23,245 nt of DNA from a bacterium (GCA_046485285.1 JAWOHE010000004.1:1-23245); one strand, 5' to 3'. Counted from the first letter of the stretch, positions 2,836-23,245 are shown. Program-made: numbers and translations. The notes: generated from the sequence alone by a model not told the origin.

Positions 2836-2840
2836 GGCTG

Positions 2841-2868: not shown

Positions 2869-2884
2869 GTAAACATATGTTTAC
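2869..2884. promoter_or_regulatory. Putative LexA operator (SOS box) GTAAACATATGTTTAC
   Basis: Perfect 16-bp palindrome right after the -10 box, covering the lexA ATG; same geometry as the GAAC-N4-GTTC box. Confidence 0.75.
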
Positions 2885-5003: not shown

Positions 5004-5056
5004 AAGGAACGCCCGACGCCGTAACCGGGCGCCGGGCGCGAGAAGTCCGGTTCGAG

Positions 5057-5920: not shown

Positions 5921-5988
5921 CAGCTTCTCCTTTCGAACCGCGCCGGGGCGCGGGCCGGCCAAGAGGTTAGGACGGCTACCGGCCCTCG

Positions 5989-8763: not shown

Positions 8764-8996
8764 CGGACCAGCAGGCCGACCGGGATCACCACGCAGTAGC
8801 CGAGGACGAGCAGGAACGGCGCGAGGGTCATCGAGCCGCCCGCCAGGCTGATGAACCCGGCGACGATCGTCACGACCCCGACGCCCATCAGGATGTAGTT
8901 CTTCCGGCCCAGCTCGAGGTGCGGCCGCGCGGGCTTCTTCGCGGCCGGCTTCGGCGCGGGCGGCCGGGCCTGCTGTCTCGTTGATTTCTGTTTCAT
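8760..8996 (-). CDS. Small two-TM membrane protein (DUF3098-like)
   Basis: RKNYILMGVGVVTIVAGF...SMTLAPFLLVLGY.V.IP.GL. Confidence 0.75.
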   Translation of the reverse strand: MKQKSTRQQARPPAPKPAAKKPARPHLELGRKNYILMGVGVVTIVAGFISLAGGSMTLAPFLLVLGYCVVIPVGLLVR

Positions 8997-8998
8997 CG

Positions 8999-9523
8999 TC
9001 AGGTTCCTTGGATGCCGTCCATCTTATCGGTCGACCCCGGGGTGTCAAGCGACGGCTCGGCCGGTGTCGAAAACTGCCGCGCGAGCCGGTCCAGCACCGC
9101 CTGCGGCTCGGCCGGCAACAGCAGGTGCGCGCCCCGGAACGTGTCGAGGAACGTCGGTCGGGAAAACGGCGACAGCACCACCCCGTTCGCGGTCCGGAAC
9201 CAGCGCCGGAACTGGCTCCACGGCCAGGTGTGGCTGAACAGCCGCTTGTCCACCGTCGCCCCGCGCCGGTCCAGCGTGTAGGTCACCGGCAGGTACCAGG
9301 TGTTCAGCGCCACCGCCAGCACCGCCAGCGTCACGACCGTCAGCAGCAGCCCGAACGCGAAGAGCACGAACGCCGCGAACGCGACCAGCACGCCGCCGAC
9401 AACTGCGCTCTTCGCCGGCGACTCGCGGAACTTGTGGACGGTCCACGTCACGGCATCATCCTCGCCGCTTGACGTCTCTCCGCCCGGCCCGGCGGGCCGG
9501 CCATCCGGTTCGACTGCCGTCAT
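8999..9523 (-). CDS. Hypothetical membrane protein (two TM helices plus a probable PH-like domain)
   Basis: Hydrophobic hairpin followed by YLPVTYTL...WSQFRR...GVVLSPF..P..LD.FRG. Confidence 0.75.
   Translation of the reverse strand: MTAVEPDGRPAGPGGETSSGEDDAVTWTVHKFRESPAKSAVVGGVLVAFAAFVLFAFGLLLTVVTLAVLAVALNTWYLPVTYTLDRRGATVDKRLFSHTWPWSQFRRWFRTANGVVLSPFSRPTFLDTFRGAHLLLPAEPQAVLDRLARQFSTPAEPSLDTPGSTDKMDGIQGT
9021..9048 (-). promoter_or_regulatory. Internal promoter for the DUF3098-like gene and pyrRBC
   Basis: Minus strand TTGACA-16 bp-TAAGAT inside the 3' end of the upstream gene. Confidence 0.6.
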
Positions 9524-9529
9524 CGCCTG

Positions 9530-9557
9530 AGTCTAGGTCGGGCCGGGCAGGGGTCAA
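9530..9557 (-). promoter_or_regulatory. Promoter, leaderless
   Basis: Minus strand TTGACC-16 bp-TAGACT, 6 nt before ATG 9523. Confidence 0.65.
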
Positions 9558-9583
9558 GCACCGCGCCCCGCCCCGGCCGGACC

Positions 9584-9611
9584 TTGACCGCCGCGCACGT
9601 AGCCCTACAAT
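9584..9611 (+). promoter_or_regulatory. Promoter of the PqqD-S26 operon
   Basis: TTGACC-16 bp-TACAAT. Confidence 0.7.
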
Positions 9612-9636
9612 CCCCGAAAGCTCGAAGGGAGACTCG

Positions 9637-9951
9637 ATGGAACAGCCAACCGTCAAACTGGAATCGGTCTACGTCCCGTCCGAGGACATCGTCGCCCGCG
9701 AAATCGAAGGCGAACTGATAATCGTCCCGCTCGCGGCCGGGGTCGGCGACATGGAAGACGAACTCTACTCCCTCAACGACACCGGCCAGGACATCTGGCG
9801 CCGGCTCGACGGCACCGCCAATCTCGCGGCCGTCGTCTCGGCGCTCTCCGGCGAATACCGGGCCGAGCCGGCCGAGATTACCCGGGACGTCGTCGGGCTG
9901 GTCGGGGAACTGCTCAAGCGGGGAATCCTCGTTGAGAAACCCGCCGGCTAG
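9637..9951 (+). CDS. Stand-alone PqqD-family RiPP recognition element (RRE)
   Basis: SEDIVAREIEGELIIVP...ELYSLNDTGQDIWRRLDG...L..EY......I.RDV..LV.EL..RG; GAAGGGAG SD. Confidence 0.9.
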   Translation: MEQPTVKLESVYVPSEDIVAREIEGELIIVPLAAGVGDMEDELYSLNDTGQDIWRRLDGTANLAAVVSALSGEYRAEPAEITRDVVGLVGELLKRGILVEKPAG

Positions 9952-10459
9952 GCCCGCCTGCCGGGGCGCGGGCAGGCCGGCCCTCTCGGTCCGGCCGGGC
10001 AGCGAACTCAACCTCCCGCTCTCGGCCCTGCTCGAGCTGATGCGGGCGGTCCTTGCCCGCGGCCGGCCGTTTCGCTTCCAGGCCCGGGGCTGGAGCATGT
10101 CCCCGTTCATCCGCGACCGCGACGTCATCACCATCGCCCCGCTCGGCTCCGCGCCGCCCCGGACCGGCGACGTCGTCGCCTTCGTCAGCCCCGCGGACGA
10201 ACGGCTCGTCGTCCATCGCGTCGTCGGCCGGCGCGGCACGTCAATGCTCATCCAGGGCGACAACCTGCCCGGCGCGCCCGACGGACTCATCCCGCTGGCG
10301 AGCGTCGTCGGCCGGGTCCGGAAAGTCGAACGTGGCGGCCGGCCCGTCCGGCTCGGCCTCGGCGGCGAACGCCGCGCGGTCGCGCTCCTCTCCCGCAAAG
10401 GCCTGCTCACCCCCCTGCTGACAAAAGCCCGGGCCCTTGTCCGCCGCCTCGCGGAATAA
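9932..10459 (+). CDS. S24/S26-family peptidase (Ser/His, Sec11/SipW-type motifs) with no N-terminal TM; start uncertain
   Basis: GWSMSPFIRDRD, GDVVAF, VVHRVV, QGDN, VVGRV. Confidence 0.85.
   Translation: MRNPPARPACRGAGRPALSVRPGSELNLPLSALLELMRAVLARGRPFRFQARGWSMSPFIRDRDVITIAPLGSAPPRTGDVVAFVSPADERLVVHRVVGRRGTSMLIQGDNLPGAPDGLIPLASVVGRVRKVERGGRPVRLGLGGERRAVALLSRKGLLTPLLTKARALVRRLAE
9952..9978 (-). repeat. Short palindromic REP-like element (copy 2)
   Basis: Reverse complement GGCCTGCCCGCGCCCCGGCAGGCGGGC; 1 mismatch versus 4842-4868. Confidence 0.75.
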
Positions 10460-10619
10460 CCCGTGGCCCATAACCCGTCACGCGAACCCGGGCCGGGTAC
10501 GAATTGTCGAGATCGTGACAACTCCGCAATCGGACGGCCGCAGCACGATCGGAGCTGCAGATGATCGCCCGGCACCGTGTGCCCGGCACGCGACGTTGGG
10601 CGAGCCTGAAGGAGGATTG

Positions 10620-10799
10620 ATGCGCGGTGTACAGAGAAAGGTCTGGCGCAAGCCGAAGCTCAAGGTCCTTGCCCGGGTAAGGACGGAAGAGAGGGCCCTG
10701 AATGGCTGCAAGTGGTATGGAACCGCGCCCGGCGGTCCTTCCTGGCCTTCCATGTGCGGGACCAAGCTCGCGCAGTGTAACGCGTTCTCCCTCAGTTGA
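10620..10799 (+). CDS. Putative RiPP precursor peptide A (59 aa, 3 Cys)
   Basis: GGAGGA SD at 10611-10616; MRGVQRKVWRKPKLKVLARVRTEERALNGCKWYGTAPGGPSWPSMCGTKLAQCNAFSLS; paralogous to 12346-12531. Confidence 0.85.
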   Translation: MRGVQRKVWRKPKLKVLARVRTEERALNGCKWYGTAPGGPSWPSMCGTKLAQCNAFSLS

Positions 10800-10947
10800 T
10801 GGCGTCTGGCCGCGGTTCGTTCCCAGATGGTTCTGGTCCGCCCTGAGCGGGTCAGACTGCAAGGTCGACTGGCACTACCTGCCCTGTCGGGCCGGGTCCG
10901 GAAGCTAGCCCGCCGGCACCAATACCGCCCCGCGGCCGTCCGCCGCC

Positions 10948-12213
10948 TCAGCCCTGTTCCCGACCCCCGCCGCCCCGGTCGAGCCAGTCCGCCAGCGCGG
11001 CCGTGCGGTCCGGCCCGCGGCCGGTAAGCCCGAGCCGCGCGAGGCGCGGCCGCACGAGGTAGCACCAGCCGGACCGCGCGAGGTGCCCGAACCAGCGCGC
11101 CCGCAGCCGGCCCGGGCTCTCCGCGCCGGGCAGACCGCGGTACACCGCGGCCAGCGACTCCCTGGACGGCCACAGCCGCCGCCGGAACACCCCGAATCGG
11201 TCCCCGACCGACCCGGTGCCGACCAGCGCCCGCAGCGGCCGGGCCGCGCCCTGCCGGCACGACGAGAACGCCATCACGCACTCCCGGGCGGTCTCGACCA
11301 CGGCCGGGTCAAACCCACCCGGCACCAGCTCCGCGAGCGCGTCGGCCGGCACCCGGGCCCGGAGCAGGACGCGGGCAAGCTCGAGCCCGAGGCCCGCGTA
11401 GCGCCCGGCGCCCCAGTCCCGGGCGGTCCGCGCGAGCCCGGGCCAGTCGAGCTCGGCGCGAAAGCGCTCGATGACCCGGGCGATGTCGCAGAACGGCAGG
11501 AGCCCGGCCGCGAACTCGTGGTGATAGCCGGCGTGCAGGCAGAGATGCAGCAGCAGGTCCTCCGGGCACAGCGTCCGCACCTCGACGCCCGCCACCCGGG
11601 CCGGCCTTGCCCGCTCCCAGAGCCCGGCAGGGTCGATGCGGAACGGGCTCGCCGGCTGTTCGATGGTCCAGTGGACCTCCACCCACAGGCCCTGCTTGTC
11701 GAACACGCCGAGGTCAGGGTAGGTCCGGCAGGCGGTCTCGATGTCGCCGGCCGCGTTCGCCCAGCCGGCCTCGACCAGCAGGGCCCGGGCCCGGGCCAGC
11801 TCCGCCCGCGGCACGAGCAGGTCAGCGTCGCCCATCGGCCGGAGCGCGATGTTGCCGTAGACGAGCTCGGCCAGCAGCGCGCCCTTCAGCACGACCACCG
11901 GGATCCCGGCACTGCGCAGGCCGCACAGCACCGGCCCGAGCTGGCGGAAGCGGCGGATGTTCCGGTCCGCGGTCCGGTAGTAGGCGCGCCTCAGCCGGGC
12001 CCGTGCGTCGGCCGGGACCGGCTCCGGCCTGTCGCCTGCCTCGAGCCGCCGGTAGAGCAGTGCCGCGACCTGGTGCCGCTCGGCAAGGTCCGCGACCGCC
12101 GCCCAGTCGGCCGGCCGGCATTCGAGCGGCTCGGAACCCTCCTGCAGACAGTCGAGCAGGAACCCGACCGCGACCCGGGAAGACCCGGGGTCAGGCCGCG
12201 TCTCTGCCGCCAT
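10948..12213 (-). CDS. Nucleotidyltransferase family protein (NTP_transf_5-like)
   Basis: LAERHQVAALLY, GIPVVVLKGALLA..VYG...LRPMGDADLLV, VEVHW, LLLHLCLHA, CDIA. Confidence 0.88.
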   Translation of the reverse strand: MAAETRPDPGSSRVAVGFLLDCLQEGSEPLECRPADWAAVADLAERHQVAALLYRRLEAGDRPEPVPADARARLRRAYYRTADRNIRRFRQLGPVLCGLRSAGIPVVVLKGALLAELVYGNIALRPMGDADLLVPRAELARARALLVEAGWANAAGDIETACRTYPDLGVFDKQGLWVEVHWTIEQPASPFRIDPAGLWERARPARVAGVEVRTLCPEDLLLHLCLHAGYHHEFAAGLLPFCDIARVIERFRAELDWPGLARTARDWGAGRYAGLGLELARVLLRARVPADALAELVPGGFDPAVVETARECVMAFSSCRQGAARPLRALVGTGSVGDRFGVFRRRLWPSRESLAAVYRGLPGAESPGRLRARWFGHLARSGWCYLVRPRLARLGLTGRGPDRTAALADWLDRGGGGREQG

Positions 12214-12219
12214 CACGGG

Positions 12220-12247
12220 ATTCTGGACGCTCGGCCGGGGATGTCAA
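12220..12247 (-). promoter_or_regulatory. Promoter of the nucleotidyltransferase gene, leaderless
   Basis: Minus strand TTGACA-16 bp-CAGAAT, 6 nt before ATG 12213. Confidence 0.65.
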
Positions 12248-12251
12248 GAAG

Positions 12252-12277
12252 AGGCCGGGAAGGTGCCTTCCCGGCCT
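12252..12277 (-). terminator. Hairpin, probable terminator after precursor B
   Basis: AGGCCGGGAAGG-TG-CCTTCCCGGCCT perfect inverted repeat, followed by CTTCTT on the minus strand. Confidence 0.55.
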
Positions 12278-12345
12278 GCGGGCGGACAGTGCCTTGTTTT
12301 CAGCCGCACGCAGGAGTGGCGACGGCTGTCAAGGCAGGGAAATTG

Positions 12346-12531
12346 TCAGGTAAGGCCGATCTCGTAGCACTTCTGCCCGGACGCGCCCTTGTAGCACTGC
12401 CATTCCGGGGCCGCGGACGGGCCGGCCTTGTTGGGCGCCTTGCAGTTCTGCAGCACCCGCTCCTCGGCGCGGACCCTCTCAAGCACCATCAACTTCGGCG
12501 TCTGCCACTCTTTCCGCACTGAATCGGTCAT
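12346..12531 (-). CDS. Putative RiPP precursor peptide B (61 aa, 3 Cys)
   Basis: GGAGGAG SD; MTDSVRKEWQTPKLMVLERVRAEERVLQNCKAPNKAGPSAAPEWQCYKGASGQKCYEIGLT; 17/26 identical to precursor A over residues 6-31. Confidence 0.85.
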   Translation of the reverse strand: MTDSVRKEWQTPKLMVLERVRAEERVLQNCKAPNKAGPSAAPEWQCYKGASGQKCYEIGLT

Positions 12532-12610
12532 TATTGCTCCTCCGGGTCGACCCCGCATCTCAACGACTTCCGACCTGACACGACACGACACTCTCCACAC
12601 ATAGCGATAC

Positions 12611-12638
12611 ATCATACCCCCCCCGGCCCCCCTGTCAA
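12611..12638 (-). promoter_or_regulatory. Promoter of precursor B
   Basis: Minus strand TTGACA-16 bp-TATGAT, near consensus. Confidence 0.75.
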
Positions 12639-12732
12639 CCCCTCTCCGGACCGGCCCATTCGGGCCGTGGTTCAAAGTTCATAGTTCAAGGTCCAAAGTT
12701 CAGAGCTCATCGCTCAGCGCTCTCCCTCCGCC
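12639..12732 (-). repeat. Composite intergenic repeat with a heptamer run, left orientation
   Basis: ggttcaa agttcat agttcaa ggtccaa agttcag agctcat cgctcag; close reverse-complement match to 19916-20004 and part of 18441-18500. Confidence 0.85.
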
Positions 12733-12747
12733 CGCCCGCAGGCCTGC

Positions 12748-12775
12748 TTGACTGGTGTCATAAAGACACTATCAT
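12748..12775 (+). promoter_or_regulatory. Promoter of AAA ATPase 1, with an inverted repeat in the spacer
   Basis: TTGACT-16 bp-TATCAT; GTGTC-ATAAA-GACAC at 12755-12769. Confidence 0.7.
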
Positions 12776-12785
12776 CTGTTGCATT

Positions 12786-14006
12786 ATGACAGGCTATCTC
12801 CCGCGCGAGATTGTCCCGCGCCTCGAACGGGCGCTGCGGCGCTTCCCCGCGGTCGTGCTCTCCGGCCTGCGCCAGACCGGCAAGAGCACGCTCCTCCAGA
12901 ACGAACCCGCGCTTGCCCGCGGCCGTGACTACCGGACGCTGGACGACTTCGCGACGCTGGCAGCGGCGAAGACCAACCCCGAGTCACTGCTCGGCCGGGC
13001 GGTGATTCTCGACGAGGTCCAGCGCTGTCCCGAACTGCTGGTTGCCCTGAAGAGGGAGATCGACGAGCGGCCCCGGCCCGGGCGGTTCATCCTGTCCGGT
13101 TCGGCCAACCTTGCGCTCATCGGGCACGTCTCGGAGACGCTGGCCGGGCGGGCCGGCTACTTCACGCTCGAACCGATGACCGGGCGGGAACTGCGCCGCG
13201 AAACCGCCGGCCGTCCGTTCCTCGCCGACTTCCTCGACTCGCCATCACTGCCCGAAGGCAAAGCCGTCCCGGTCAGCGACGAGCTGGTACTCGCCGGCGG
13301 CCTGCCGCCGGTCTGCCTGGGACCGGCCGACAGCGCGGCGGAATGGCTGCGCAGCTACGTCCAGACCTACGTCGAACGCGACCTCCGCCAGCTCTCGCAG
13401 GTCAGCGACCTCATCGCCTTCCGCAACCTGGCCCAGCTCGCGGCGCTGCGCACCGGCCAGGTCCTCGTCGTCAGCATGCTCGCCCGCGACGCCCGGCTCA
13501 ACGCCGTCACCGCCGGCCGCTACCTCGGCCTGCTCGAGGCCTCCTTCGTCCTGCGCCGCCTGCCGCCGTTCCTGAACAACCGGAGCTCCCGGCTGGTCAA
13601 GTCACCGAAACTCCTCTTCACCGACAGCGGCCTGGCCGCGCACCTTGCCGGGGTGACCTCGCTCGCGCCCGGGCGCGACGACTCCCTGCGCGGCTCGCTC
13701 TTCGAGACCTACGTCGGTCAGAACCTGCTCGCGCTCATCGAAGCGCACATTCCCGGGGCGCGGCTGACCTACTGGCACGAACAGGGCCGGCACGAAGTTG
13801 ACTTCGTCATCGAGTCTGGCCGCAAGGTGCTCGCCATCGAAGTCAAGGCCGCGACCCGCTGGCGGGCGGGTGACCTGTCGGGCCTGCAGGCACTCCTCGC
13901 CCGGACGCCGGCCTGCACTGCCGCGGTGCTGGCCTACAACGGCCGGGAAGCGGTCCGGCTCGCGGACCGGCTCTGGGCGATCCCGGTCGGCCGGCTGCTC
14001 GGGTAG
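12786..14006 (+). CDS. AAA+ ATPase (AAA_14 + DUF4143, COG1373-like) with C-terminal PD-(D/E)XK-like motif, copy 1
   Basis: GLRQTGKS, ILDEVQ, LSGSA, ETLAGR, YVQTYVERD, KSPK..FTDSGL, EVDF...IEVK. Confidence 0.92.
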   Translation: MTGYLPREIVPRLERALRRFPAVVLSGLRQTGKSTLLQNEPALARGRDYRTLDDFATLAAAKTNPESLLGRAVILDEVQRCPELLVALKREIDERPRPGRFILSGSANLALIGHVSETLAGRAGYFTLEPMTGRELRRETAGRPFLADFLDSPSLPEGKAVPVSDELVLAGGLPPVCLGPADSAAEWLRSYVQTYVERDLRQLSQVSDLIAFRNLAQLAALRTGQVLVVSMLARDARLNAVTAGRYLGLLEASFVLRRLPPFLNNRSSRLVKSPKLLFTDSGLAAHLAGVTSLAPGRDDSLRGSLFETYVGQNLLALIEAHIPGARLTYWHEQGRHEVDFVIESGRKVLAIEVKAATRWRAGDLSGLQALLARTPACTAAVLAYNGREAVRLADRLWAIPVGRLLG

Positions 14007-14010
14007 CGCT

Positions 14011-14305
14011 CCGGACCATTCGGGCCGTGGTTCAAAGTTCGTGGTTCAGGAGGACTAGTTCAAGGTTCAGAGGGCAGAATTCGGCATTCATCGCTCAGTC
14101 CTCGTGCCGTCCTTTGTGTCTTAGCCCCCGGTCCGCGCCCTTGTCCTCACACACATCACCCCTTCGTGACTTTGTGTTGAATCCTGCCCGCAGCTCAGCA
14201 TTCATCGCTCTGCCCTCGTGCCGTCCTTTGTGTCTTTGCCTCCGGACCGCGTCCTTGTCCTCACATACATCACCCCTTCGTGACTTCGTGTTGAATCCTG
14301 CCCGC
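14011..14305 (-). repeat. Heptamer run followed by two tandem copies of a 114-bp unit (14084-14197, 14198-14305)
   Basis: gcattcatcgctc...cctcgtgccgtcctttgtgtc...catcaccccttcgtgact.tgtgttgaatcctgcccgc occurs twice with period 114; inverted third copy at 16770-16892. Confidence 0.92.
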
Positions 14306-14322
14306 GCCCCTTCAGCTTCGCC

Positions 14323-14351
14323 TTGACACCCTGCCCCACTTGGCCTAGTAT
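14323..14351 (+). promoter_or_regulatory. Promoter for the four-helix-bundle/NDP-sugar dehydrogenase transcript
   Basis: TTGACA-17 bp-TAGTAT. Confidence 0.6.
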
Positions 14352-14479
14352 CGCCAACGTATGAAACAGGCGCAGGCGGAGCCTGAGGTTGAGACGCGCG
14401 CAGCGGCCCGCGCATTGGCCGAACCAACTGCCGGAGACCTGCCGGTCCCGGCGGTCGTCCGGGCGTCGAGGACCACGGT

Positions 14480-14535
14480 GGTTCATGGTTCAAAGTCCAT
14501 TGTTCGTGGTTCGGAGGTCGAACGTCCGGCGTCTG
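14480..14535 (-). repeat. Degenerate heptamer run upstream of the four-helix-bundle gene
   Basis: ggttcat ggttcaa agtccat tgttcgt ggttcgg aggtcga acgtccg gcgtctg. Confidence 0.7.
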
Positions 14536-14622
14536 GGTCACTCGTTCGTGGTCACGCGCCTGTCGTCAGCGTTCGCATCTCACGCCTGCGACTGGCGGTT
14601 CGGCGATGACTGACAGGTAACC

Positions 14623-15039
14623 GTGGGCACGTTCAAGAGCTTCGAGGAAATAGACGCCTGGCAGAAGGCGCGCGAGCTCACGCGGCGCGTCTACGAGGTC
14701 ACGGCGAACGGTCCCTTTGCCCACGACCACGCCCTCCGCGACCAGGTCCGCCGTGCCGGCATCTCGGTGATGTCGAACGTTGCCGAGGGATTCGGCCGGG
14801 GCGGGACGAAGAAGTTCGTCCAGTTCCTCTCAATGGCGCTCGGCTCGACCAACGAGGTCCGCTCGCAGTTGTACGTCGCGCTTGACCAGGAATACATCGA
14901 CGAGCGCGAGTTCGAACTACTGACGTCCCTCGCGCAGGAATGCACGAACCTGATCAGCGGACTGGCCAGGTACCTGCGCGGCTCAGGCCTCAGAGGCACC
15001 AAATTCACCCCTCCCCGAACCTTGAACCTTGAACCTTGA
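14623..15039 (+). CDS. Four helix bundle protein (23S_rRNA_IVP/TIGR02436 family)
   Basis: SFEEIDAWQKAREL...VY..T....F..D.ALRDQVRRA.ISVMSNVAEGFGRG..K.F.QFL..A.GS..EVRSQLYVALDQ.YI; GTG start. Confidence 0.93.
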   Translation: MGTFKSFEEIDAWQKARELTRRVYEVTANGPFAHDHALRDQVRRAGISVMSNVAEGFGRGGTKKFVQFLSMALGSTNEVRSQLYVALDQEYIDEREFELLTSLAQECTNLISGLARYLRGSGLRGTKFTPPRTLNLEP

Positions 15040-15091
15040 ACTTTGAACTTCCCACTCTGAACCATGAACCTTGAACCACAAACCATGAACC
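15015..15091 (+). repeat. 11 tandem heptamers (TTGAACY consensus)
   Basis: ccgaacc ttgaacc ttgaacc ttgaact ttgaact tcccact ctgaacc atgaacc ttgaacc acaaacc atgaacc. Confidence 0.92.
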
Positions 15092-16386
15092 GCCTTATCA
15101 ATCGCCTCAACCGCAAGGAATCCGTCATCGGCATCGTCGGGCTCGGCTACGTCGGCCTGCCGCTGATGCTCCGCTTCGAGGAAGTCGGCTACCGGGTCCT
15201 CGGCTTCGACATCGACGAAGACAAGGTCGCCCGGCTCAACCGCGGCGAGACCTACATCGCCCACATCCCGGCCGCGAGCATCGCCCGGGCCCGCGCGGCC
15301 GGGTTCGAAGCCACCACCGACTTCTCCCGCGCCGCGGAGCCGGACGCGCTGATCCTCTGTGTCCCGACCCCGCTCGACAAGCACCGCGAGCCGGACCTGA
15401 GCTTCGTCCTCGACACGACCGACTCGCTCCTGCCGTACATCCGCGCCGGGCAGGTGATGTCGCTTGAAAGCACCACCTGGCCGGGCACGACCGACGAAGA
15501 ACTCAAACCCCGCGTCGAATCGCGCGGCCTTGAAGTCGGCCGGGACTTCTTCCTCGTCTTCTCGCCCGAGCGCGAGGACCCGGCCAACCCGGACTTCACG
15601 CCCCGGACGATTCCCAAGGTCGTCGGCGGCACGACCCCGGCCTGCCTCGAAGTCGGCAAGGCGCTCTACGGCCAGGTCATCGACAAGCTCGTCCCGGTCA
15701 GCTCGACCCGGGTCGCGGAGATGACCAAGCTCCTCGAAAACATCCACCGCGCGGTCAACATCGGGCTGGTCAACGAAATGAAAATGGTCTGCGACCGGAT
15801 GGGCATCGACGTCCACGAGGTCATCCGGGCCGCCTCGACCAAGCCCTTCGGCTTCGTCCCCTACTACCCGGGCCCGGGCCTCGGCGGGCACTGCATCCCC
15901 ATCGACCCCTTCTACCTCACCTGGAAGGCCCGCGAATACGGCATCAACACCCGGTTCATCGAGCTCGCCGGCGAAATCAACCGCGCGATGCCGGAATGGG
16001 TCGTCGGCAAGGTCGCCGACGCGCTCAACGCCCGCGGCCGGGCGCTCAAGGACAGCAAGGTCCTTGTTCTCGGCATCGCCTACAAGCGCGACGTCGACGA
16101 CCCGCGCGAATCCCCGGCGATGGAGATACTTGAGCTCCTCAGGCACAAAGGCGCCAAGGTCGCCTACTCCGACCCGCACATCCCGGTCTTCCCGAAGATG
16201 CGCGAGTACTGCTTCGACCTCCAGAGCGTCCCGCTCACCCCGGCCACGCTAAAAGAATACGACTGCGTGATTCTCGCCACCGACCACAAAGCCTTCGACT
16301 ACGCCCTCATCAAGAACCACGCCCGCCTCATCGTCGATACCCGCGGCGCGTACCTCGAACCAGCCCCGAACGTCGTCAAAGCCTGA
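15085..16386 (+). CDS. Nucleotide-sugar 6-dehydrogenase (UDP-GlcNAc dehydrogenase WbpA-like)
   Basis: [53 protein letters not shown] (catalytic Cys), [20 protein letters not shown]; start 15085 or 15064. Confidence 0.93.
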
Positions 16387-16476
16387 GGGTGGGGCGGAGG
16401 TGAGGGTTGTGTTCGACTGAGATGAACCAGCCCTGCCCCATACCCTAAGCGGACGCAACCCTATCCCCACCCGCAC

Positions 16477-16704
16477 CCCCGGAGCGGTCCCCGGGGCGGC
16501 TCCCGGGACGGCCCCCGGGGCGGCTCCCGGGGCGGCCCCCGGGACGGCCCCCGGAGCGGCTCCCGGGACGGCTCCCGGAGCGGCCCCCGGAGCGGCTCCC
16601 GGGGCGGCCCCCGGGGCGGTCCCCGGAGCGGTCCCCGGGGCCGTCCCCGGGGCGGTCCCCGGGACCGTCCCGGGGATATCCCCGGGGATATCCCCGGGGA
16701 TATC
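16477..16704. repeat. GC-rich minisatellite, 19 x 12 bp
   Basis: Units such as ccccggagcggt, ccccggggcggc and tcccgggacggc, ending in three ccc(c)ggggatat units. Confidence 0.95.
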
Positions 16705-16769
16705 CCCCCCCTGCCTCAAGGCTTGGTCGGTGAGTGACTTACGTTTTGGCGCCCGAGAACAGGGCGAAA

Positions 16770-17041
16770 GGCAGAGCGATGAACGCTGAGCTGCGGGCAG
16801 GATTCAACACAAAGTCACGAAGGGGTGATGTGTGTGAGGACAAGGACGCGGTCCGGAGGCAAAGACACAAAGGACGGCACGAGGGCAGAGCGCCGAACCT
16901 TGCTTCGCGTTCTACGCGAGTGCCCGCACCTTGAACCTTGGACCCTGAACTGGTCCTCGCGGACCCTGAACTGTGAACTTTGAACCACGGCCCGAAGGGG
17001 CCGGAGAGGGATTTCTCCACGCTGGTCGAAATGACGGGCGG
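16770..17041 (+). repeat. Composite repeat, right orientation: inverted 114-bp unit, small hairpin module, heptamers, GATTTC...GAAATGAC REP
   Basis: 16770-16892 is the reverse complement of the 14084-14305 unit; 16931-17004 mirrors 14011-14070; agggatttctccacgctggtcgaaatgacgggcgg at 17007-17041. Confidence 0.9.
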
Positions 17042-17058
17042 GCGGGCGGGATGTGATG

Positions 17059-17086
17059 TTGACATAGCAGAATCATCGGCTATTCT
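17059..17086 (+). promoter_or_regulatory. Promoter of AAA ATPase 2, leaderless, with an overlapping imperfect palindrome
   Basis: TTGACA-16 bp-TATTCT, 7 nt before ATG 17094; ATAGC-aGAatcaTCg-GCTAT at 17064-17083. Confidence 0.72.
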
Positions 17087-17093
17087 GTATTTG

Positions 17094-18281
17094 ATGTATA
17101 TCGAAAGGCTGGCTGAGACGGGTTTGCGCCGGGCCCTGGCTTCCGGCAAGGTGGGCATTGTCGTCGGGGCGCGGCAGGTCGGGAAGACGACCCTTGTCGA
17201 GCACGTGCTGGCCGGCCGCAAGGCCCTGTTCCTCAATTTCGACGTTGAGATAGACAAGCAGAGGTTCCTGGCCGCCGCGGCCCTGTCACCGGCGGACAGC
17301 CTCAGGAGCCTGGGCAGTCCTGAGGTGCTGGTGGTGGACGAGGCCCAGCGCCTGCCCGAGGCGGCCCGGGTGGTCAAAGGCTGGTACGATTCGCGGCTGC
17401 CGCTCACGATGCTCCTGCTCGGTTCTTCGAGCCTGGACCTGCTCGACCAGGCCGCGGAGAGCCTGACCGGGCGCAATGAGCGGCTGGTATTGCCGCCGCT
17501 CGTGTTCGAGGAGGCCCTGCGTTCCCGGCAGTGGTACTCCGATGCGCACCCGCCCGCGGTGCTCCGGGAGCAGTTTGCCGCGCCGCTCAGGGTCTCGCTG
17601 ATGGAGTCGCTGGCGTTCGGCGGGTATCCCGAGGTCGTGCTCGCCGAGGACAAGCCGCGCCTGCTGAGGCAGTTGAGTTCGGACTACCTGTGGAAGGACA
17701 TCCTCCAGACCGGGCTGGTCAAGACGCCGGACCTCATCAAGCGGCTGTTGGCGTTGCTCGCGCACCAGGTCGGGAGCGAGGTCTCGACCCAGGAGCTGGC
17801 GACCCGGCTCCAGATGGCCCGGCCGACGGTCGAGCGGTACCTCGACCTGCTGGAGCAGACTTACGTGGTCTTCCGCCTGCCGTCGTTCAGCACGAATCCG
17901 CGCAAGGAGATTACCCGGGGCAGGAAGGTCTTCTTCTGGGACACGGGAATCCGCAACGCGCTCCTGAACGCGTTCTCGACCGAGGAGTTCCGTCCGGACA
18001 TCGGCGCGCTGTGGGAGAACTGGGTGATTGCCGAGGCGGCAAAGCACAACCTGCTCCGGGGCGCGGTCAGCGAGTTGTTCTTCTGGCGCTCGCGGGCGCA
18101 GTCGGAGGTGGACCTCGTCGTCCGGACCGGCGACCGCCTGAGCGCCTTCGAGGTCAAGTGGCGGGCGCGGCGGCCGGCGGGCCGGGCGTTCGAGGCGCAG
18201 TACCGGGTGGCGGTGCGGCAGGTCAGCGCGGAGAATCCGTTCATCGGCAGACAGGTGGCGGAGGAGGGAGAAGAGCGCTGA
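17094..18281 (+). CDS. AAA+ ATPase (AAA_14 + DUF4143), copy 2
   Basis: MYIERL start; GARQVGKTT, VVDEAQ, LGSSS, ESLTGR, FGGYP, KVFFWDTGIRN, EVDL...FEVK. Confidence 0.92.
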   Translation: MYIERLAETGLRRALASGKVGIVVGARQVGKTTLVEHVLAGRKALFLNFDVEIDKQRFLAAAALSPADSLRSLGSPEVLVVDEAQRLPEAARVVKGWYDSRLPLTMLLLGSSSLDLLDQAAESLTGRNERLVLPPLVFEEALRSRQWYSDAHPPAVLREQFAAPLRVSLMESLAFGGYPEVVLAEDKPRLLRQLSSDYLWKDILQTGLVKTPDLIKRLLALLAHQVGSEVSTQELATRLQMARPTVERYLDLLEQTYVVFRLPSFSTNPRKEITRGRKVFFWDTGIRNALLNAFSTEEFRPDIGALWENWVIAEAAKHNLLRGAVSELFFWRSRAQSEVDLVVRTGDRLSAFEVKWRARRPAGRAFEAQYRVAVRQVSAENPFIGRQVAEEGEER

Positions 18282-18300
18282 GCTACGGCCCGGACGGGCC

Positions 18301-18532
18301 GGGCCACCACCTCACCCCAACCCTCAGACTTCACGTCCGACGTGAGTGCCCGCACTACCAGGAGCAGCACCCCCTTCTCCAGAGGCGGAGAGGGAGCCGG
18401 ACGAAAAGGGATTTCTCCACGCTGGTCGAAATGACGGGCGGCGGAGGGCAGAGCGATGAGCGCTGAGCTCTGAACTTTGGACCTTGAACCACGAACTTTG
18501 AACTGGTCCTCCTGGACCGCAAACCTTGAACT
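18301..18532 (+). repeat. Composite repeat between the convergent AAA genes
   Basis: cctcaccccaaccct...tctcc..ggagagg REP interrupted by an insert; 35 bp at 18407-18441 identical to 17007-17041; heptamer run 18447-18532. Confidence 0.88.
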
Positions 18533-18541
18533 GCGGGATTT

Positions 18542-19723
18542 TCAAGCCGGGCGGCCGCGGGAGCGGATGTCGGCCGCCAGCGCGGCCAGCGGCACCGCCT
18601 CCACGTCGTCACCAAGCGGGTAGCGCTCGCCACCGGGGTAGACCACGCAGCGGCGGTCGGGCTTGAGGTCAGCGCAGGCGGAGTGGAACCCGCGCGCCGG
18701 CCGCGGCCGGAGGCTTCTCTTCACCTCGACCGCCCAGCGGTCACCATCGCCGAAGACGATCAGGAGGTCGAGCTCCGCACCGCCCGCCGTGCGGTAGAAG
18801 TACCCGGTTGCCCCGTCCGGGGCGCCGACCAGGAGGTTCTCAACCACGAACCCCTCCCAGCTTGCGCCCGCCACCGGGTGGCCGAGCAGGGCGTCGCGGT
18901 CCCCGAGCGCGAGGAGAGCGTGCAGTATGCCGCTGTCGCGCAGGTAGACACGGGGCGACTTCACCAGCCGCTTGCCGGTGTTGGCGTGCCACGGTGGCAG
19001 GCGCCGGGCCAGCAGCAGGTCAACCAGCAGGTCGAGGTAGCGGGCCGCGGTCTTCGCGTCCACGCCGAGACTCCGCGCCAGCTCGGCGGTGTTGAGCAGG
19101 CCACCCTGGTGGTGCGCCAGCATCGTCCAGAAACGGCGCAGGGTCTCGGCGGCAATCCGGGGGCCGAACTGCGGGATGTCGCGCTCCAGATAGGTGCGGA
19201 TGAAGTCCTGCCGCCAGCGCATGCTCTGCTCCGCACTCCGGGCGAGCAGGCTTTCCGGAAACCCGCCGCGCAGCCAGAGCGTGTCGGCCGGCTTGCGGGT
19301 CGGTTCGAGCACGGTGAAGGGCGCGAGCTCCAGGTAGCGAACCCGACCCGCCAGCGACTCGCCCGACTGACGGAGCAGGTCAAACGACGCCGAGCCCAGC
19401 AGGAGATACCGGCCGGTGCCGTATCCCCGGCGCCGGGCGCGGTCAATCAGCCCGCGCAGAACCGGGAACAGGCCGGGCGTCCGATGCACCTCGTCGAGAA
19501 TCACCAGCTTGTCCAGGTGCCGCTCAAGGTACAGCTCCGCCTCGGCGAGCTTCGCACGGTCCCGCTCGGATTCAAGGTCCAGGTAGAGCGCGTTCTCCCG
19601 GCTCCGCTTCACCTCGAGCGCCAGGGTCGTCTTGCCTGCCTGCCGGGGGCCCAGCAGGCAGACTGCGGGGACCTCGTCCAGCGCCCGCATCAGCGAGGGA
19701 GCCAGAAGACGCTCGAGTGTCAT
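18542..19723 (-). CDS. AAA+ ATPase (AAA_14 + DUF4143), copy 3
   Basis: MTLERLL start; GPRQAGKTT, ILDEVH, LGSAS, ESLAGR, WLRGGFP, FIRTYLERD, KSPRVYLRDSG, ELDL...VEVK. The ORF-track extension to 20311 is translated repeat sequence. Confidence 0.92.
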   Translation of the reverse strand: MTLERLLAPSLMRALDEVPAVCLLGPRQAGKTTLALEVKRSRENALYLDLESERDRAKLAEAELYLERHLDKLVILDEVHRTPGLFPVLRGLIDRARRRGYGTGRYLLLGSASFDLLRQSGESLAGRVRYLELAPFTVLEPTRKPADTLWLRGGFPESLLARSAEQSMRWRQDFIRTYLERDIPQFGPRIAAETLRRFWTMLAHHQGGLLNTAELARSLGVDAKTAARYLDLLVDLLLARRLPPWHANTGKRLVKSPRVYLRDSGILHALLALGDRDALLGHPVAGASWEGFVVENLLVGAPDGATGYFYRTAGGAELDLLIVFGDGDRWAVEVKRSLRPRPARGFHSACADLKPDRRCVVYPGGERYPLGDDVEAVPLAALAADIRSRGRPA

Positions 19724-19730
19724 CCTAGCA

Positions 19731-19758
19731 ATTATGGCATGAGATTCCTGAATTGCAA
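19731..19758 (-). promoter_or_regulatory. Promoter of AAA ATPase 3, leaderless
   Basis: Minus strand TTGCAA-16 bp-CATAAT, 7 nt before ATG; GCAATT (19728-19733) and AATTGC (19751-19756) inverted pair. Confidence 0.68.
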
Positions 19759-19851
19759 GGATGACCGTCTCGGCCCGCGCCGCGAGCGGCTCCTGCCCGA
19801 AGAAGGCAGGCGGGAAGGGGCGCGGAGCGAAGCGAGAAGGCGGAAGACAGA

Positions 19852-20165
19852 TTGCAGAATGCAGAGTGCAGAATGCAGAGTGAGGAAACGGGCCGGGCGG
19901 AAAGGGAAAGGAGGAGGCGGAGGGCAGAGCGATGAGCGCTGAGCTCTGAACTTTGGACCTTGAACTACGAACTCTGAACCACGGCCCGGAGGGGCCGGAG
20001 AGGGATTTCTCCACGCTGGTCGAAATGACGGGGGGCTGCGGCGGCCGTTGGTCGAAATGACAGGCGGCGGAGGGCAGAGCGCCGAACCTTGAACCTTGAA
20101 CTTTGGACCTTGAACCTTGAACCTTGAACCTTGAACTGGTCCTCCCGGACTGTGAACCTTGGACT
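19852..20165 (+). repeat. Composite repeat: NTGCAGA heptamers, TGAAC heptamers, GATTTC...GAAATGAC REP
   Basis: ttgcaga atgcaga gtgcaga atgcaga (19852-19879); 19916-20004 block; REP at 20001-20032; half-REP at about 20047-20061; ttgaacc run about 20082-20160. Confidence 0.88.
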
Positions 20166-20195
20166 GCGGCCCGCGGCCCGGACGGGCCGGAAGTA

Positions 20196-20223
20196 TTGAC
20201 AGCCGGGCCGGCGAGAGTAGGAT
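20196..20223 (+). promoter_or_regulatory. Promoter of the dehydratase gene
   Basis: TTGACA-16 bp-TAGGAT. Confidence 0.7.
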
Positions 20224-20243
20224 ACAGCACAGGTTCTGACGTG

Positions 20244-22190
20244 ATGACACCCAAGGCGGTCAATGCCGAACTGAGCCTCGCGAGGATTGCCCGCGAAATT
20301 GCGCGTCCCACCCGATGGAAGCGTATCGCGTTCTACGTCTTCTTCGACGCGCTGGTCGTGGCGGCCGCGAGCCTCTTATCCTATGCAGCGGCGGTGCGCG
20401 AGTTCCTGCCCGCGTTCGGCCACTTCGCCTCCGATGTCCTGCCCTTCGCCGGGGTCGTGCTGGCATTCCAGGTCGGGCTGAGCTTCTTCCTCTCCTCTTA
20501 CGACCTGCGCTGGTCGACCTTCTCGCTGGCCGACCTGCCGCGCGCGGTCATCCCCGGAATCGGGACCGCGGTCGTGCTCGGCGGCGTGTCGCTGACCGGC
20601 CGGTTCGTGACCCTGACCCCGTGGTCGGCGCTGACCTGGTGCCTGATCAACATCTGCGGGACGATTGCCGTGCGCGGCGCCCGTCGCTTCTACTCCGAGG
20701 TCGTCCGGCCGCGAGGCGGGAAGCGGGCGCTGATAGTCGTCTGCACCGACAAGGCCTACTTCCTGCTCGACGTCCTGCGCCGGATTCGCGCCTTCCAGTA
20801 TCATTTCGTCGGGTTCATCGACCCGGCCCCGGGCAACCAGGGCTCGACGGTGCAGGGCGTACCGGTGCTCGGCGGCTTCGCGGACGTCGAGGAGGTGGTG
20901 GCCCGGCACCGGGTCCAGGCCGCGCTGGTCCTCCTGAGCGCGAACCCGGAATACCCGATGAACGGGCTCTACCAGCGCCTGCACGAGCTCGGGCTCGAGG
21001 TGCGGATAATCCCGTCGTTCGCGGACATGCTCAGCGACCGGGCCGACGTCGGCGCGCTCGAGCGGCTGAGCATCCACGAGCTGACCGGCCGGCCGCCGGT
21101 GACCGTCGACCCGTGCGACATGCGCGAGCTGTTCGGCGGTCGGCGGGTGCTGGTGACCGGCGCGGGCGGCTCGATCGGCTCCGAGCTCTGCCGCCAGCTC
21201 TGCCGGTTCGAACCGGCGCTGGTGGCGCTGTTCGAGCGCGACGACTCGAACCTGTTCGGCATCGAGCACGAGCTCGGCGCAGCCTACCCGGGCATCGAGC
21301 TCTTACCGTTCCTCGGCGACGTCACCCGCGAGGACGACGTCGAGCGGGCGTTCGCCCGGGTCCGGCCCGAGGTCGTGTTCCACGCCGCGGCCTACAAGCA
21401 CGTCCCGATTCTCGAGTTCCACCCGGCCGAGGCGGTCCGGGCCAACGTCGTCGGCAGTCACGTCGTCGCCCGGGCCGCGGTCCGGCACGCGACCGGCCGG
21501 TTCGTCTACATCTCGACCGACAAGGCGGTGAACCCGACGAGCGTGATGGGCGCGAGCAAGCGCATCGGCGAGACGCTGGTGACCGCGATGAACGGCCAGG
21601 GCGGGACGCGGTTCATCGCGGTGCGGTTCGGCAACGTGCTCGACAGCCGGGGCAGTGTCTCGACGATTTTCCGGCGGTCGATATACCTGCGCCGGCCGCT
21701 GACGCTGACCGACCCGGAGATGAAGCGCTACCTGATGCTGACGAGCGAGGCGGTCCTGCTGGTCCTGCAGGCGGCCGCGATCGGGCAGGGCGGCGAGGTG
21801 TTCGTGCTCGACATGGGGAACCCGGTGCGGATATGGGACCTCGCCGAGACGATGATTCGCCACGCCGGCCTGCGGCCGGAGGTGGACATACCGATTGTCG
21901 TGACCGGGCGGCGGCCAGGCGAGAAGCTGTTCGAGGAGCTCCTGACCGCGGAGGAAGGCACGGTCGTGACGATAAACCGGCGTATCTACCGGGCGCGGAT
22001 TTCCGCGAAGCGGGGGTACGATGAGCTGGCCGCGGACGTGGCGCGGCTCGAGGCCGTGGCCGGGAGCGCGGGCCCGGCCGAGGTCCGGGCGGAGATGCTC
22101 CGGCAGGTTTCGAGCTACACGCCGGACCTGGCGTGCCTGAATGGCAGGCCGACAGCATCGGGCAGTGCCGCCGTCGCGGCGGCGGAGTGA
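20244..22190 (+). CDS. Membrane-anchored NDP-sugar 4,6-dehydratase (CapD/PglF/WbpM-like polysaccharide biosynthesis protein)
   Basis: Four N-terminal TM segments, CoA-binding-like domain, TGAGGSIGSELCRQ, FHAAAYKHVP, ISTDKAVNPTSVMGASK, VRFGNVLDSRGS, VLDMG.PV.I.DLA, RPGEKLFEEL. Confidence 0.93.
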   Translation: MTPKAVNAELSLARIAREIARPTRWKRIAFYVFFDALVVAAASLLSYAAAVREFLPAFGHFASDVLPFAGVVLAFQVGLSFFLSSYDLRWSTFSLADLPRAVIPGIGTAVVLGGVSLTGRFVTLTPWSALTWCLINICGTIAVRGARRFYSEVVRPRGGKRALIVVCTDKAYFLLDVLRRIRAFQYHFVGFIDPAPGNQGSTVQGVPVLGGFADVEEVVARHRVQAALVLLSANPEYPMNGLYQRLHELGLEVRIIPSFADMLSDRADVGALERLSIHELTGRPPVTVDPCDMRELFGGRRVLVTGAGGSIGSELCRQLCRFEPALVALFERDDSNLFGIEHELGAAYPGIELLPFLGDVTREDDVERAFARVRPEVVFHAAAYKHVPILEFHPAEAVRANVVGSHVVARAAVRHATGRFVYISTDKAVNPTSVMGASKRIGETLVTAMNGQGGTRFIAVRFGNVLDSRGSVSTIFRRSIYLRRPLTLTDPEMKRYLMLTSEAVLLVLQAAAIGQGGEVFVLDMGNPVRIWDLAETMIRHAGLRPEVDIPIVVTGRRPGEKLFEELLTAEEGTVVTINRRIYRARISAKRGYDELAADVARLEAVAGSAGPAEVRAEMLRQVSSYTPDLACLNGRPTASGSAAVAAAE

Positions 22191-22201
22191 GCGCGACGAG
22201 C

Positions 22202-22417
22202 GGGCCACCACCTCACCCCGACCCTTCTCCCCCGGAGGCGGAGAGGAAGCCGGACGGGCAGGAAAGGGATTTCTCCACTCCGCTACGCTCCGGTCGAAAT
22301 GACAAGCGGAAGCGCCTCGCGGCCGTTGGTCGAAATGACGGGCGGGGACGGAGGGCTGAGCGATGAGCAAGAGTCCTGAACGATGAACTTTGAACCAGGA
22401 ACCTTGAACTTTGAACA
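22202..22417 (+). repeat. Composite repeat after the dehydratase gene
   Basis: gggccaccacctcaccccgacccttctcc..ggagagg; gatttctccactccgctacgctccggtcgaaatgac; gttggtcgaaatgac; tgaac heptamers at 22376-22417. Confidence 0.85.
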
Positions 22418-22574
22418 TCCGCCATCGTCGCTATGGGCTTGACAAAGCGGCAGACAGGGCGAAGATGTTGGCGGATTGGGGCAGGGAGCGGGGCGGTGCG
22501 AGGACAGGGGAGTTGACAGGACGGTTCGGAGCGTGAAGACAGGACAGAGACCGCAGATTGCACAGGAGGCGGAG

Positions 22575-23245
22575 ATGGAGACAGACGTGAAGGCAGGCGG
22601 AGACGGACTCAGGGCCGGGGCACCGGGACGCGGTTTTCTTCGCGTCCTCGTGCTGGCGCTCGCGCTCGTCGCGCTGATGACGCCGGCGTGGGCCCAGTTC
22701 GACCGGACCGGGGTGCTGGTCAACGTGCCGACGACCGGGGTTCTGCCGGGCGGGATGATAGCGGCGTCGGTCGGTCTGACCGGGCCGCTGATGGACCCGG
22801 CGACGAGCCGGAACACCGGGCTTGAGCTGGGCGGCGCTCTGCGCTACGCGCCGGTGGACCGGCTGGAGCTCGGGCTGACGGCGTACACGCTGATGGACTG
22901 GGTGCTGGGCGCGACCTGGCAGCTGTTCGGTGAGCCGGACGGGGCCGCGTTCGCGCTCGGGGTCCACGACATCGGGCTGAGCAGGTACGTCTCGCCGATC
23001 GGCAACGGGCTCGACGACGCGTGGCCGGACTGGAAGTACCGGCACGACAACCTCGGCAAGAAGGACCGCACGTTCGAGAACTTCTCGGCGTTCGCGGTCG
23101 GGAGCGTGCCCTTGGCGTCGTTTGCCCGGCTGCATCTCGGGGCGGGCCGGGGGCGGTTCGTGGGCTACGACCGGGGCCGGTACGTCAACACCGACATCTT
23201 CTTCGACAAGACGACGCCGTCACACTGGTGGGCGGTGGGGCTGTT
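22575..23245 (+). CDS. Exported, probable outer-membrane beta-barrel protein (YjbH-like); runs off the window
   Basis: Not in the ORF track. My translation: METDVK...RVLVLALALVALMTPAWA-QFDRTGVLVNVPTTGVLPGG...LRYAPVDRLELGL...AFALGVHDIG...RLHLGAGRGRF; open to the window end. Confidence 0.7.
   Translation, partial: METDVKAGGDGLRAGAPGRGFLRVLVLALALVALMTPAWAQFDRTGVLVNVPTTGVLPGGMIAASVGLTGPLMDPATSRNTGLELGGALRYAPVDRLELGLTAYTLMDWVLGATWQLFGEPDGAAFALGVHDIGLSRYVSPIGNGLDDAWPDWKYRHDNLGKKDRTFENFSAFAVGSVPLASFARLHLGAGRGRFVGYDRGRYVNTDIFFDKTTPSHWWAVGL

Follow-up and report, generated by a model that had tools for sequence, protein, structure and literature searches.

Why do the heptameric repeats around a gene for a four-helix-bundle protein seem to nest concentrically about that gene? 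The question is raised by a bacterial DNA stretch of 23,245 nucleotides (GCA_046485285.1 JAWOHE010000004.1:1-23245; hereafter, the window), which is the entire contig C72 of a metagenome-assembled genome (MAG; 2.34 Mb, 102 contigs, 69% G+C, 88% estimated completeness). An initial annotation had noted repeat blocks reading GTTCAA to the left of the gene and TTGAAC to its right, had paired them about the gene as a common centre of symmetry, and had proposed that the protein and the polar repeats together organise, rearrange or regulate the polysaccharide locus in which they lie. Genes were predicted with a codon-bias caller, and their products were compared with Pfam (21 window open reading frames [ORFs] scanned). 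The probable answer is that two independent layers overlap in the window: a cassette built on the four-helix gene, and a dispersed mosaic repeat with strand polarity. Their superposition creates the appearance of a nest, and the outer blocks belong not to the four-helix gene system but to a mosaic intergenic repeat, specific to the species, of which they are solo copies.

The four-helix gene (14623–15039, plus strand) encodes a protein of 138 residues, which matched PF05635 (23S_rRNA_IVP) with an E-value of 6.9e-34 (116.7 bits; cut-off, 33.8) and TIGR02436 with 110.3 bits (cut-off, 24), and its nearest solved relative is PDB 2gsc (E-value, 1.1e-13). On its 5′ side lies a degenerate heptamer array reading GTTCA (14477–14535, plus strand; array detection, inverted match and RNA fold), and on its 3′ side a (TTGAACC)-type array (15015–15094, plus strand; array detection and RNA fold). 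The last nine residues of the protein (PPRTLNLEP) are encoded in the 3′ array, which extends over the four-helix stop codon and takes in the ATG (15085) of the next gene, a member of the UDP-glucose/GDP-mannose dehydrogenase family with three UDPG_MGDP_dh domains (15085–16386, plus strand), which is the host gene 3′ of the cassette; the paired stretch of this arm (15055–15094) includes that ATG. The arm-to-arm duplex had a predicted energy of −62 kcal/mol (z = −6.0, 300 shuffles), compared with −27.6 for a reversed-arm control, and in the predicted minimum-free-energy fold of the whole 626-nt cassette RNA, 33 base pairs formed between the arms. The neighbours of the cassette are protein-coding genes, and no rRNA match was found in 12300–22800. 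A sigma-70-like promoter match (TTGACA, 17 nt, TAGTAT; 14323–14351, plus strand), scoring 10/12 as a consensus match alone, precedes both arms, the four-helix gene and the dehydrogenase gene; there are six such promoter-like sites in 12300–22800, where 0.5 were expected, and they stand at the heads of the gene units of this stretch. The four-helix gene together with its two arms is a heptamer-armed cassette of the intervening-sequence (IVS) type.

The same design recurs within the genome, with other words. When 1894 genes were ranked for period-7 arrays in both flanks, the window gene was fourth, and four of the five four-helix genes scored, the window's included, were among the top 35; the fifth, at rank 592, had a period-8 run. 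Inverted heptamer arrays were recognised by eye at C15:5294–5656 (CAGCTNN and NNAGCTG), C42:14307–14624 (GGGNNCA and CCCCTGN) and C65:2480–2860 (CAGATTG-type). The initial annotation had proposed a genome-wide map of heptamer polarity against the four-helix genes as a check: TTGAAC arrays flank none of the five other four-helix genes, no switch in TTGAAC polarity is seen across any of them, and the repeat word is different at each. The cassette on C65 directly follows a tRNA-like sequence (C65:2250–2480), with the CAGATTG array beginning a few bases past the tRNA 3′ end, as judged by eye.

The design also recurs across phyla. We gathered 80 loci with a two-sequence alignment query, encoding proteins 42–68% identical to the window protein and coming from more than 15 phyla (Acidobacteriota, Bacteroidota, Planctomycetota, Nitrospirota, Desulfobacterota, Verrucomicrobiota, Chloroflexota, candidate phyla radiation lineages and others). 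At a threshold of 19/28 or better, period-7 arrays were confined to two places: the roughly 150 nt that precede the start (−100 bin, 32 of 79 loci) and the stop itself (+400 bin, 39 of 80). Farther out, the bins between −700 and −400 and those between +600 and +1050 contained none. Both flanks were positive for period 7 at 39 of 79 loci, compared with six for period 8, four for period 9 and none for periods 5, 6 and 10–12. In the 41 two-arm loci, arms of the same locus matched at 5.93 of 7 unit positions and arms of different loci at 4.49 of 7, and the corresponding duplex energies were −36.9 and −20.4 kcal/mol (Mann-Whitney p = 1.8e-14). A test of polarity switching at TIGR02436 genes in other genomes had also been proposed; in these 41 loci, GTT was present in the 5′ arm at 35 and AAC in the 3′ arm at 38. 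Furthermore, a scan for four spaced TGAAC units, with one genome per species, returned at least 125 loci in many phyla, where about one was expected by chance (our own arithmetic); in loci L145, L153, L180 and L197, a PF05635 gene lies between the arrays or directly beside them. These results uphold a non-chance link between the four-helix gene and inverted heptamers, namely complementary period-7 arms in a layout that recurs across phyla and at four of the five genes scored here.

Gain and loss of the cassette could be compared in one pair of genomes, at family distance. The other member of the pair, G008 (same family, 3.26 Mb in a single contig), has a dehydrogenase ortholog 81% identical to that of the window, compared with 44–48% in three genomes of the same genus. 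At the dehydrogenase junction of G008 the four-helix gene is absent, and a solo GAAC-type array stands where the window has its 3′ arm (L361, G008:C1:1776500–1783500, reverse strand 3617–3666); this array could be a remnant or a landing site. The nearest four-helix homolog in G008 (67%) lies about 68 kb from the dehydrogenase ortholog and has arms of its own, and the other proteins of the window locus had no match in the 6-kb stretch where it lies. The G008 orthologs of the dehydrogenase and Polysacc_synt_2 genes are about 60 kb apart on opposite strands. Heptamer arrays were nearly absent from the 10 relatives searched (0–3 matches each). The skew of G008:C1 changed sign irregularly over 20 samples of 8 kb taken every 165 kb, and G008 had no match to the DnaA domain (PF00308); its single contig may have been scaffolded from a bin and not be a genuinely closed chromosome, or it may be heavily rearranged.

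The cassette consists of a 5′ GTTCA-type arm, an ORF and a 3′ TGAAC-type arm, set at the junction before the sugar dehydrogenase gene and behind one promoter-like site. We propose that on the transcript the arms would pair in a stem of about 33–40 bp, closing off the ORF, and that the stem would be cut by RNase III, by analogy with the IVS of 23S rRNA; such a cut would release the cassette RNA from the message of the host gene. That the stem is an RNase III substrate is a tentative proposal, and we put it at somewhat less than an even chance. Pairing or cutting could affect the dehydrogenase because its start codon lies in the stem. The cassette would be gained and lost as a unit.

The repeat blocks outside the cassette, and their orientations, are as real as the initial annotation had taken them to be. 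The window contains 15 copies of TTGAACC where 1.23 would be expected, a count that none of 100 shuffles reached, and 14 of these words lie within 12.6–22.4 kb, three on the minus strand (12669, 14029 and 14487) and eleven on the plus strand from 15022 on; the fifteenth (8127, plus strand) is intragenic. Repeat copies are minus-oriented at 12669, 14029 and 14480 and plus-oriented from 15015 to 22417, and an array is present in all seven consecutive intergenic gaps of 12.5–22.7 kb. Strict detection gave 32 arrays in the 2.34-Mb assembly, eight of them on C72 in the orientation order --++++++, and looser detection gave 37, all intergenic. The inverted pairings likewise exist: 14087–14305 with 16770–16897 (93–96% complementary), 12651–12726 with 19923–19998 (91%), 12670–12738 with 18435–18503 (87%) and 14477–14516 with 15055–15094 (75%). 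What does not hold is the common symmetry centre, since the midpoints of the pairs fall at about 14785, 15537, 15586 and 16324, up to 1.5 kb apart, and only the innermost lies inside the four-helix gene. Whenever a series of minus copies precedes a series of plus copies, the two can be paired into an apparent nest.

Nor are the blocks unique to the locus. BLAST of 12.4–22.7 kb against the genome placed the same modules on about 40 other contigs, and where several are present they keep a fixed order and one direction (e.g., C64, C71 and C100, and reversed on C40, C45, C88 and C101). In this order, the modules are a near-palindromic GC-rich 12-mer array (M2), its tail (M2t), a 114-bp unit (M3), a flank (M1a), a heptamer array (M1h) and two hairpins that end in GGATTTCTCCAC..GGTCGAAATGAC (M1b). 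The complete repeat reads from the 12-mer palindromic array through the tail, the 114-bp unit and the flank to the TTGAACC array and the two hairpins, and its copies are oriented with the G-rich strand. Short extragenic palindromic modules, in many copies and in mosaic combination, are a feature shared with repetitive extragenic palindromes (REPs) and bacterial interspersed mosaic elements (BIMEs).

In the window, M2 with its tail occupies 16450–16768 on the plus strand (12-mer array itself, 16450–16710; period 12, 15.7 copies; CCCCCGGGGCGG, then CCCGGGGATATC three times), and its palindrome has 114-nt arms that are 75% complementary and 1 nt apart. Copies of M2 occur on more than 30 contigs, often at contig ends, and 12-mer arrays are therefore the probable cause of much of the assembly fragmentation; for the same reason, M1 copies near contig ends nearly always point inward. 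Meanwhile, more than 10 M2 arrays are spanned within other contigs. M3 is present as two tandem 114-bp units at 14084–14305 on the minus strand (period 114, 92% matches), inverted relative to a single unit at 16770–16900 on the plus strand that was found both by BLAST against the genome and as an inverted match, and copies equally close to 14084–14305 lie on C66 (97.8%) and C67 (94.8%). A search of 12300–22800 against Rfam with E-values up to 1 gave only five matches, each below threshold and each on the GC-rich 12-mer array; the heptamer and hairpin modules had none.

The solo M1 copies in the window were located by array detection, in most cases together with BLAST. Two are on the minus strand: 12639–12738 (flank, heptamer array and GGCCC..GGGCC hairpin; array detection, BLAST and inverted match) and a heptamer array at 14009–14070 (array detection and BLAST), directly 3′ of the stop codon of the first of three genes for ATPases with AAA_14 and DUF4143 domains (gene A, 12786–14006, plus strand). 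The plus-strand copies are at 16931–17045, with the M1b hairpin GGATTTCTCCAC..GGTCGAAATGAC (array detection), and, from array detection and BLAST, at 18399–18536, between the convergent DUF4143 genes B (17094–18281, plus strand) and C (18542–19690, minus strand), at 19916–20169, where two M1 repeats adjoin and an eight-unit TTGAACC array lies at 20082–20137, and at 22250–22417. M1 copies thus lie on both sides of each of these three Pfam-assigned ATPase genes, in direct orientation (minus/minus for A, plus/plus for B and for C).

The direction of the solo copies followed the GC skew, which in this assembly keeps a single sign over tens of kilobases. Outside C72, the polar modules fell into 55 single-orientation clusters (one mixed cluster on C71 was excluded), and with the skew taken from the flanking 10 kb, the TTGAAC strand was the locally G-rich strand in 46 of the 55 (Fisher p = 5.6e-7). 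The direction of the genes cannot account for this association. Where the neighbouring genes are co-directional, 12 clusters ran with them and 11 against them, and 20 of these 23 still agreed with the skew; only 57% of genes lie on the G-rich strand. A promoter-linked orientation of the solo repeats was also considered and discarded, as the gene on the 3′ side pointed away in 19 clusters and did not in 19 (hand count).

C72 itself changes skew, from −0.07 (1–12600) and −0.12 (12600–16400) to +0.075 (16800 to the end), with the minimum of cumulative G−C at 16717, inside M2. The polarity change of the solo copies, the last minus copy ending at 14070 and the first plus copy starting at 16931, brackets the skew change. 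In other words, C72 reads GTTCAA on the left and TTGAAC on the right because the copies follow the G-rich strand and the skew flips at about 16.7 kb. Of 381 equal-sized control windows taken from other long contigs, only four showed a comparable reversal, and candidates for the cause of the reversal on C72 are an inversion, a foreign island, a true replication origin or a wrong join. An inversion between the M3 copies was rejected as the cause of the pattern, because re-inverting 14306–16769 keeps the minus-then-plus order (coordinate reasoning). The association with skew presumably reflects replication direction, and the reason for the strand polarity may lie in strand-specific copying or in selection against hairpins on one template strand. 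Nothing supports the proposal that the protein and the polar repeats organise, rearrange or regulate the polysaccharide locus; the outer copies follow the skew, as the clusters elsewhere do.

Several observations weigh against the two-layer reading. On the side of the repeat, nine of the 55 clusters disagree with the skew, several of them at contig ends, and clusters on one contig are not independent of one another; counting one per contig and orientation by hand leaves about 36 against nine. Solo TGAAC arrays in other phyla do not follow the local skew (of 59 loci with a length of 6 kb or more, 24 were concordant and 35 discordant), and the polarity is therefore a property of the repeat family of this genome, not of the word. 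In C72 as assembled, the skew change has the sign expected of an origin, yet dnaA is on another contig (C33, with an unclear skew pattern); DnaA-box words are rare. At least two other contigs (C15 and C35) show the same kind of flip. On the side of the cassette, strong arrays on both sides were found in only about half of the relatives sampled, and the 80 loci represent one subfamily of the protein family. Pairing of the RNA in vivo and its cutting by RNase III would both be carried over from a single precedent family.

The skew minimum at 16717 falls exactly in a repeat that is found on more than 30 contigs and at which many contigs end, and the two inverted forms of M3 share 98% identity across 100 nt; in a MAG of 102 contigs, the changes of polarity and skew might accordingly be an assembly artefact, with two loci joined through M2, M3 and M1 at 16.4–17.0 kb, or with the segment between the M3 copies placed arbitrarily. 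We consider this unlikely. Both halves are of the same functional kind, with the sugar dehydrogenase gene on the left, the Polysacc_synt_2 gene on the right and DUF4143 genes, three of the four in the genome, on both; the composite copies differ by 10–20%, which gives the assembler unique words, and the assembly did span M2 arrays within other contigs, as noted above. As for an arbitrary placement, flipping only 14306–16769 keeps the outer minus/plus order, again by coordinate reasoning.

Less probable still is the unified system envisaged by the initial annotation, in which the four-helix protein and all of the polar TTGAAC blocks would act in cis and trans about the gene to organise, rearrange or regulate the polysaccharide locus. 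The innermost arms and the outer blocks do share a heptamer word, eight of the 32 strict arrays of the genome stand in one 10-kb stretch, the polarity change of all blocks spans the four-helix gene, and Avd, a relative of the protein, binds nucleic acid. Set against these points are the scattered pair centres and about 29 further TGAAC arrays on other contigs, which lie far from four-helix genes and whose direction is predicted by the skew. Each of the other four-helix genes has its private word, with TTGAAC polarity switching at none of them; the DUF4143 genes are flanked by direct copies, on C64 as well as on C72; and the outer copies are as similar to those on C66 and C67 as to each other. 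The least probable alternative, that each outer inverted pair marks the two arms of a larger cassette in a nested series, with guests such as the DUF4143 ATPases inserted in hairpin loops and the nest recording the history of insertion, can appeal to empty hairpins in other phyla, in which a short spacer separates (GTTCANN)n from (NNTGAAC)n (e.g., minus/plus TGAAC pairs at L135, L157, L165, L191, L201 and L203) and to the three DUF4143 genes and the four-helix gene that interrupt the sugar locus, but it is contradicted by the direct orientation of the copies around each DUF4143 gene, by M1 copies of a single orientation on C42, C48, C61, C64 and C67 and by the pair 14009–14305/16770–17006, which encloses an ordinary host gene, and we know of no precedent for a stem across 2.5–7 kb.

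The two layers of the preferred reading, cassette and mosaic repeat, share the TTGAACC word, and a speculative extension, which we hold to be improbable, would connect them historically. The four-helix protein would recognise the heptamer word of its own cassette, in the form of RNA or single-stranded DNA. That word would have escaped from the arms and seeded the roughly 35 solo TTGAACC arrays, and their co-orientation with the G-rich strand would be the footprint of copying on a single replication strand. In such a mobile-repeat system, which would be of a new kind, the cassette would act autonomously and the mosaic repeats would depend on it as non-autonomous members, and the heptamers of many phyla that resemble the short tandemly repeated repetitive (STRR) sequences of cyanobacteria would have the same origin.

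Some further features of the window and of the repeats were recorded. The same stretch of C72 also holds an NTP_transf_5 gene (10948–12216, minus strand) and a Polysacc_synt_2 gene (20241–22190, plus strand), both assigned by Pfam. The three DUF4143 genes on C72, which are divergent, fall within 7 kb of a polysaccharide locus, and the fourth is on C64 at about 53.9–55.0 kb; all four AAA_14 and DUF4143 genes adjoin M1 repeat clusters and, beyond the repeats, have no mutual DNA similarity. One possibility is that they are guest genes with a preference for the same variable sites. Upstream of DUF4143 gene C, a second heptamer array, (CAGAATG/CAGAGTG)n, stands alone (19843–19887); related words make up the 5′ arm at the C65 four-helix gene (CAGATTG) and resemble the GACAGAT heptamers reported for the IVS of Coxiella. 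At 2877–5003, Pfam identifies a LexA gene and, after it, genes for a DUF6504 protein and a Y-family polymerase (IMS), a group that looks like an SOS-controlled mutagenesis cassette of the ImuA′/ImuB type.

The hairpin module GATTTCTCC..GTCGAAATGAC, 25–40 nt long with a variable apical stem, occurs in the window at 16986–17045, 18399–18441, 19993–20035 and 22261–22346. It is not species-specific: as a gapped pattern it was found at no fewer than 130 loci, often as inverted doublets about 50 nt apart, in many phyla and groups, among them Bacteroidota, Clostridia, Desulfobacterota, Chloroflexota, Planctomycetota, Nitrospirota and candidate phyla radiation lineages, and an exact 27-mer of it is also present in a Ghiorsea MAG of 45% G+C. 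By tblastn, none of 131 such loci had a four-helix gene within 300 nt of the module.

Mosaic elements of the REP/BIME kind, with their REP-associated tyrosine transposases (RAYTs), are short hairpin modules that are extragenic, keep a fixed mosaic order, exist in many copies and break short-read assemblies. The outer blocks are likewise short, hairpin-containing, extragenic, fixed in mosaic order, multi-copy and disruptive to short-read assembly. Unlike REPs and BIMEs, they have no RAYT between inverted copies, their modules include heptamer and 12-mer arrays, and their orientation follows the GC skew, not gene ends. The analogy with RAYT genes flanked by inverted REPs, drawn in the initial annotation, does not extend to the four-helix gene: its protein belongs to PF05635 and is not a Y1 transposase (PF01797), and the one Y1_Tnp gene of the genome (C44:28803–29132) is without such flanks. 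Within that gene, a segment of about 90 bp is directly duplicated, and CCCCGG-rich repeats come after the gene (region C44:28782–29500). Replication-polar sequences such as the FtsK orienting polar sequences (KOPS) and Chi offer another comparison, in which the agreement of 46 of 55 clusters with the skew is read from a fragmented assembly without a mapped origin or terminus.

As for the protein, its four-helix-bundle fold family is distantly related to that of Avd, the accessory protein of diversity-generating retroelements (PMC10053308). The window protein gave a weak match to the Avd model NF033474 (19.9 bits; cut-off, 80) and is not Avd by this NCBI model; no reverse transcriptase domain was found among the 21 window ORFs scanned, a search that did not extend to template and variable repeats. 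The family PF05635/TIGR02436 is very large, and its function is known only in diversity-generating retroelements and rRNA intervening sequences. As for the arrays, the STRR heptamers of filamentous cyanobacteria are 7-bp tandem intergenic units, capable of forming hairpins and of unknown function (PMC2670836), and the passage concerned, which speaks of cyanobacteria, leaves tandem intergenic heptamers unexplained and without a tie to a gene family, whereas the arrays described here bracket a four-helix gene and occur in many phyla. The window thus provides a further well-resolved case that joins a four-helix gene with heptamer arms, in this instance at an operon junction. Particular to it is that the same word also occurs in solo arrays within a mosaic repeat, whose direction, following strand composition, hints at how such words may spread.

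The initial annotation had known of no description of such a system. A literature search, with subscription journals outside its coverage, found no paper describing heptamer-armed four-helix cassettes between protein-coding genes as a class, and a search with the repeat sequence words returned primers only; a precedent for the cassette nevertheless exists, and the closest described system is the ORF-bearing IVS of 23S rRNA. According to Warrier et al. (2016, PMC4990558), the IVS of Coxiella burnetii is a 428-nt selfish element with an S23p ORF, its stem is cut by RNase III, and tandem heptameric repeats lie upstream of the ORF in a number that varies between strains; such IVSs are described there as selfish, sporadic and horizontally acquired. 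The ORF-bearing IVSs of C. burnetii, and also of Leptospira, have in common with the window cassette the protein family PF05635 and an ORF closed off by complementary termini that form a long stem. They differ in position, the IVS sitting in a helix of 23S rRNA (9, 25 or 45; 45 in the Coxiella case) and the window cassette between protein-coding genes behind a promoter-like site. In the window cassette, which is known here from sequence alone, both arms are heptamer arrays, and the 3′ arm overlaps the stop codon of its cargo and the start of the next gene. The cassette thereby makes the model developed for rRNA inserts testable on an ordinary message, with respect to formation of the stem, cutting by RNase III and the effect on the downstream start codon.

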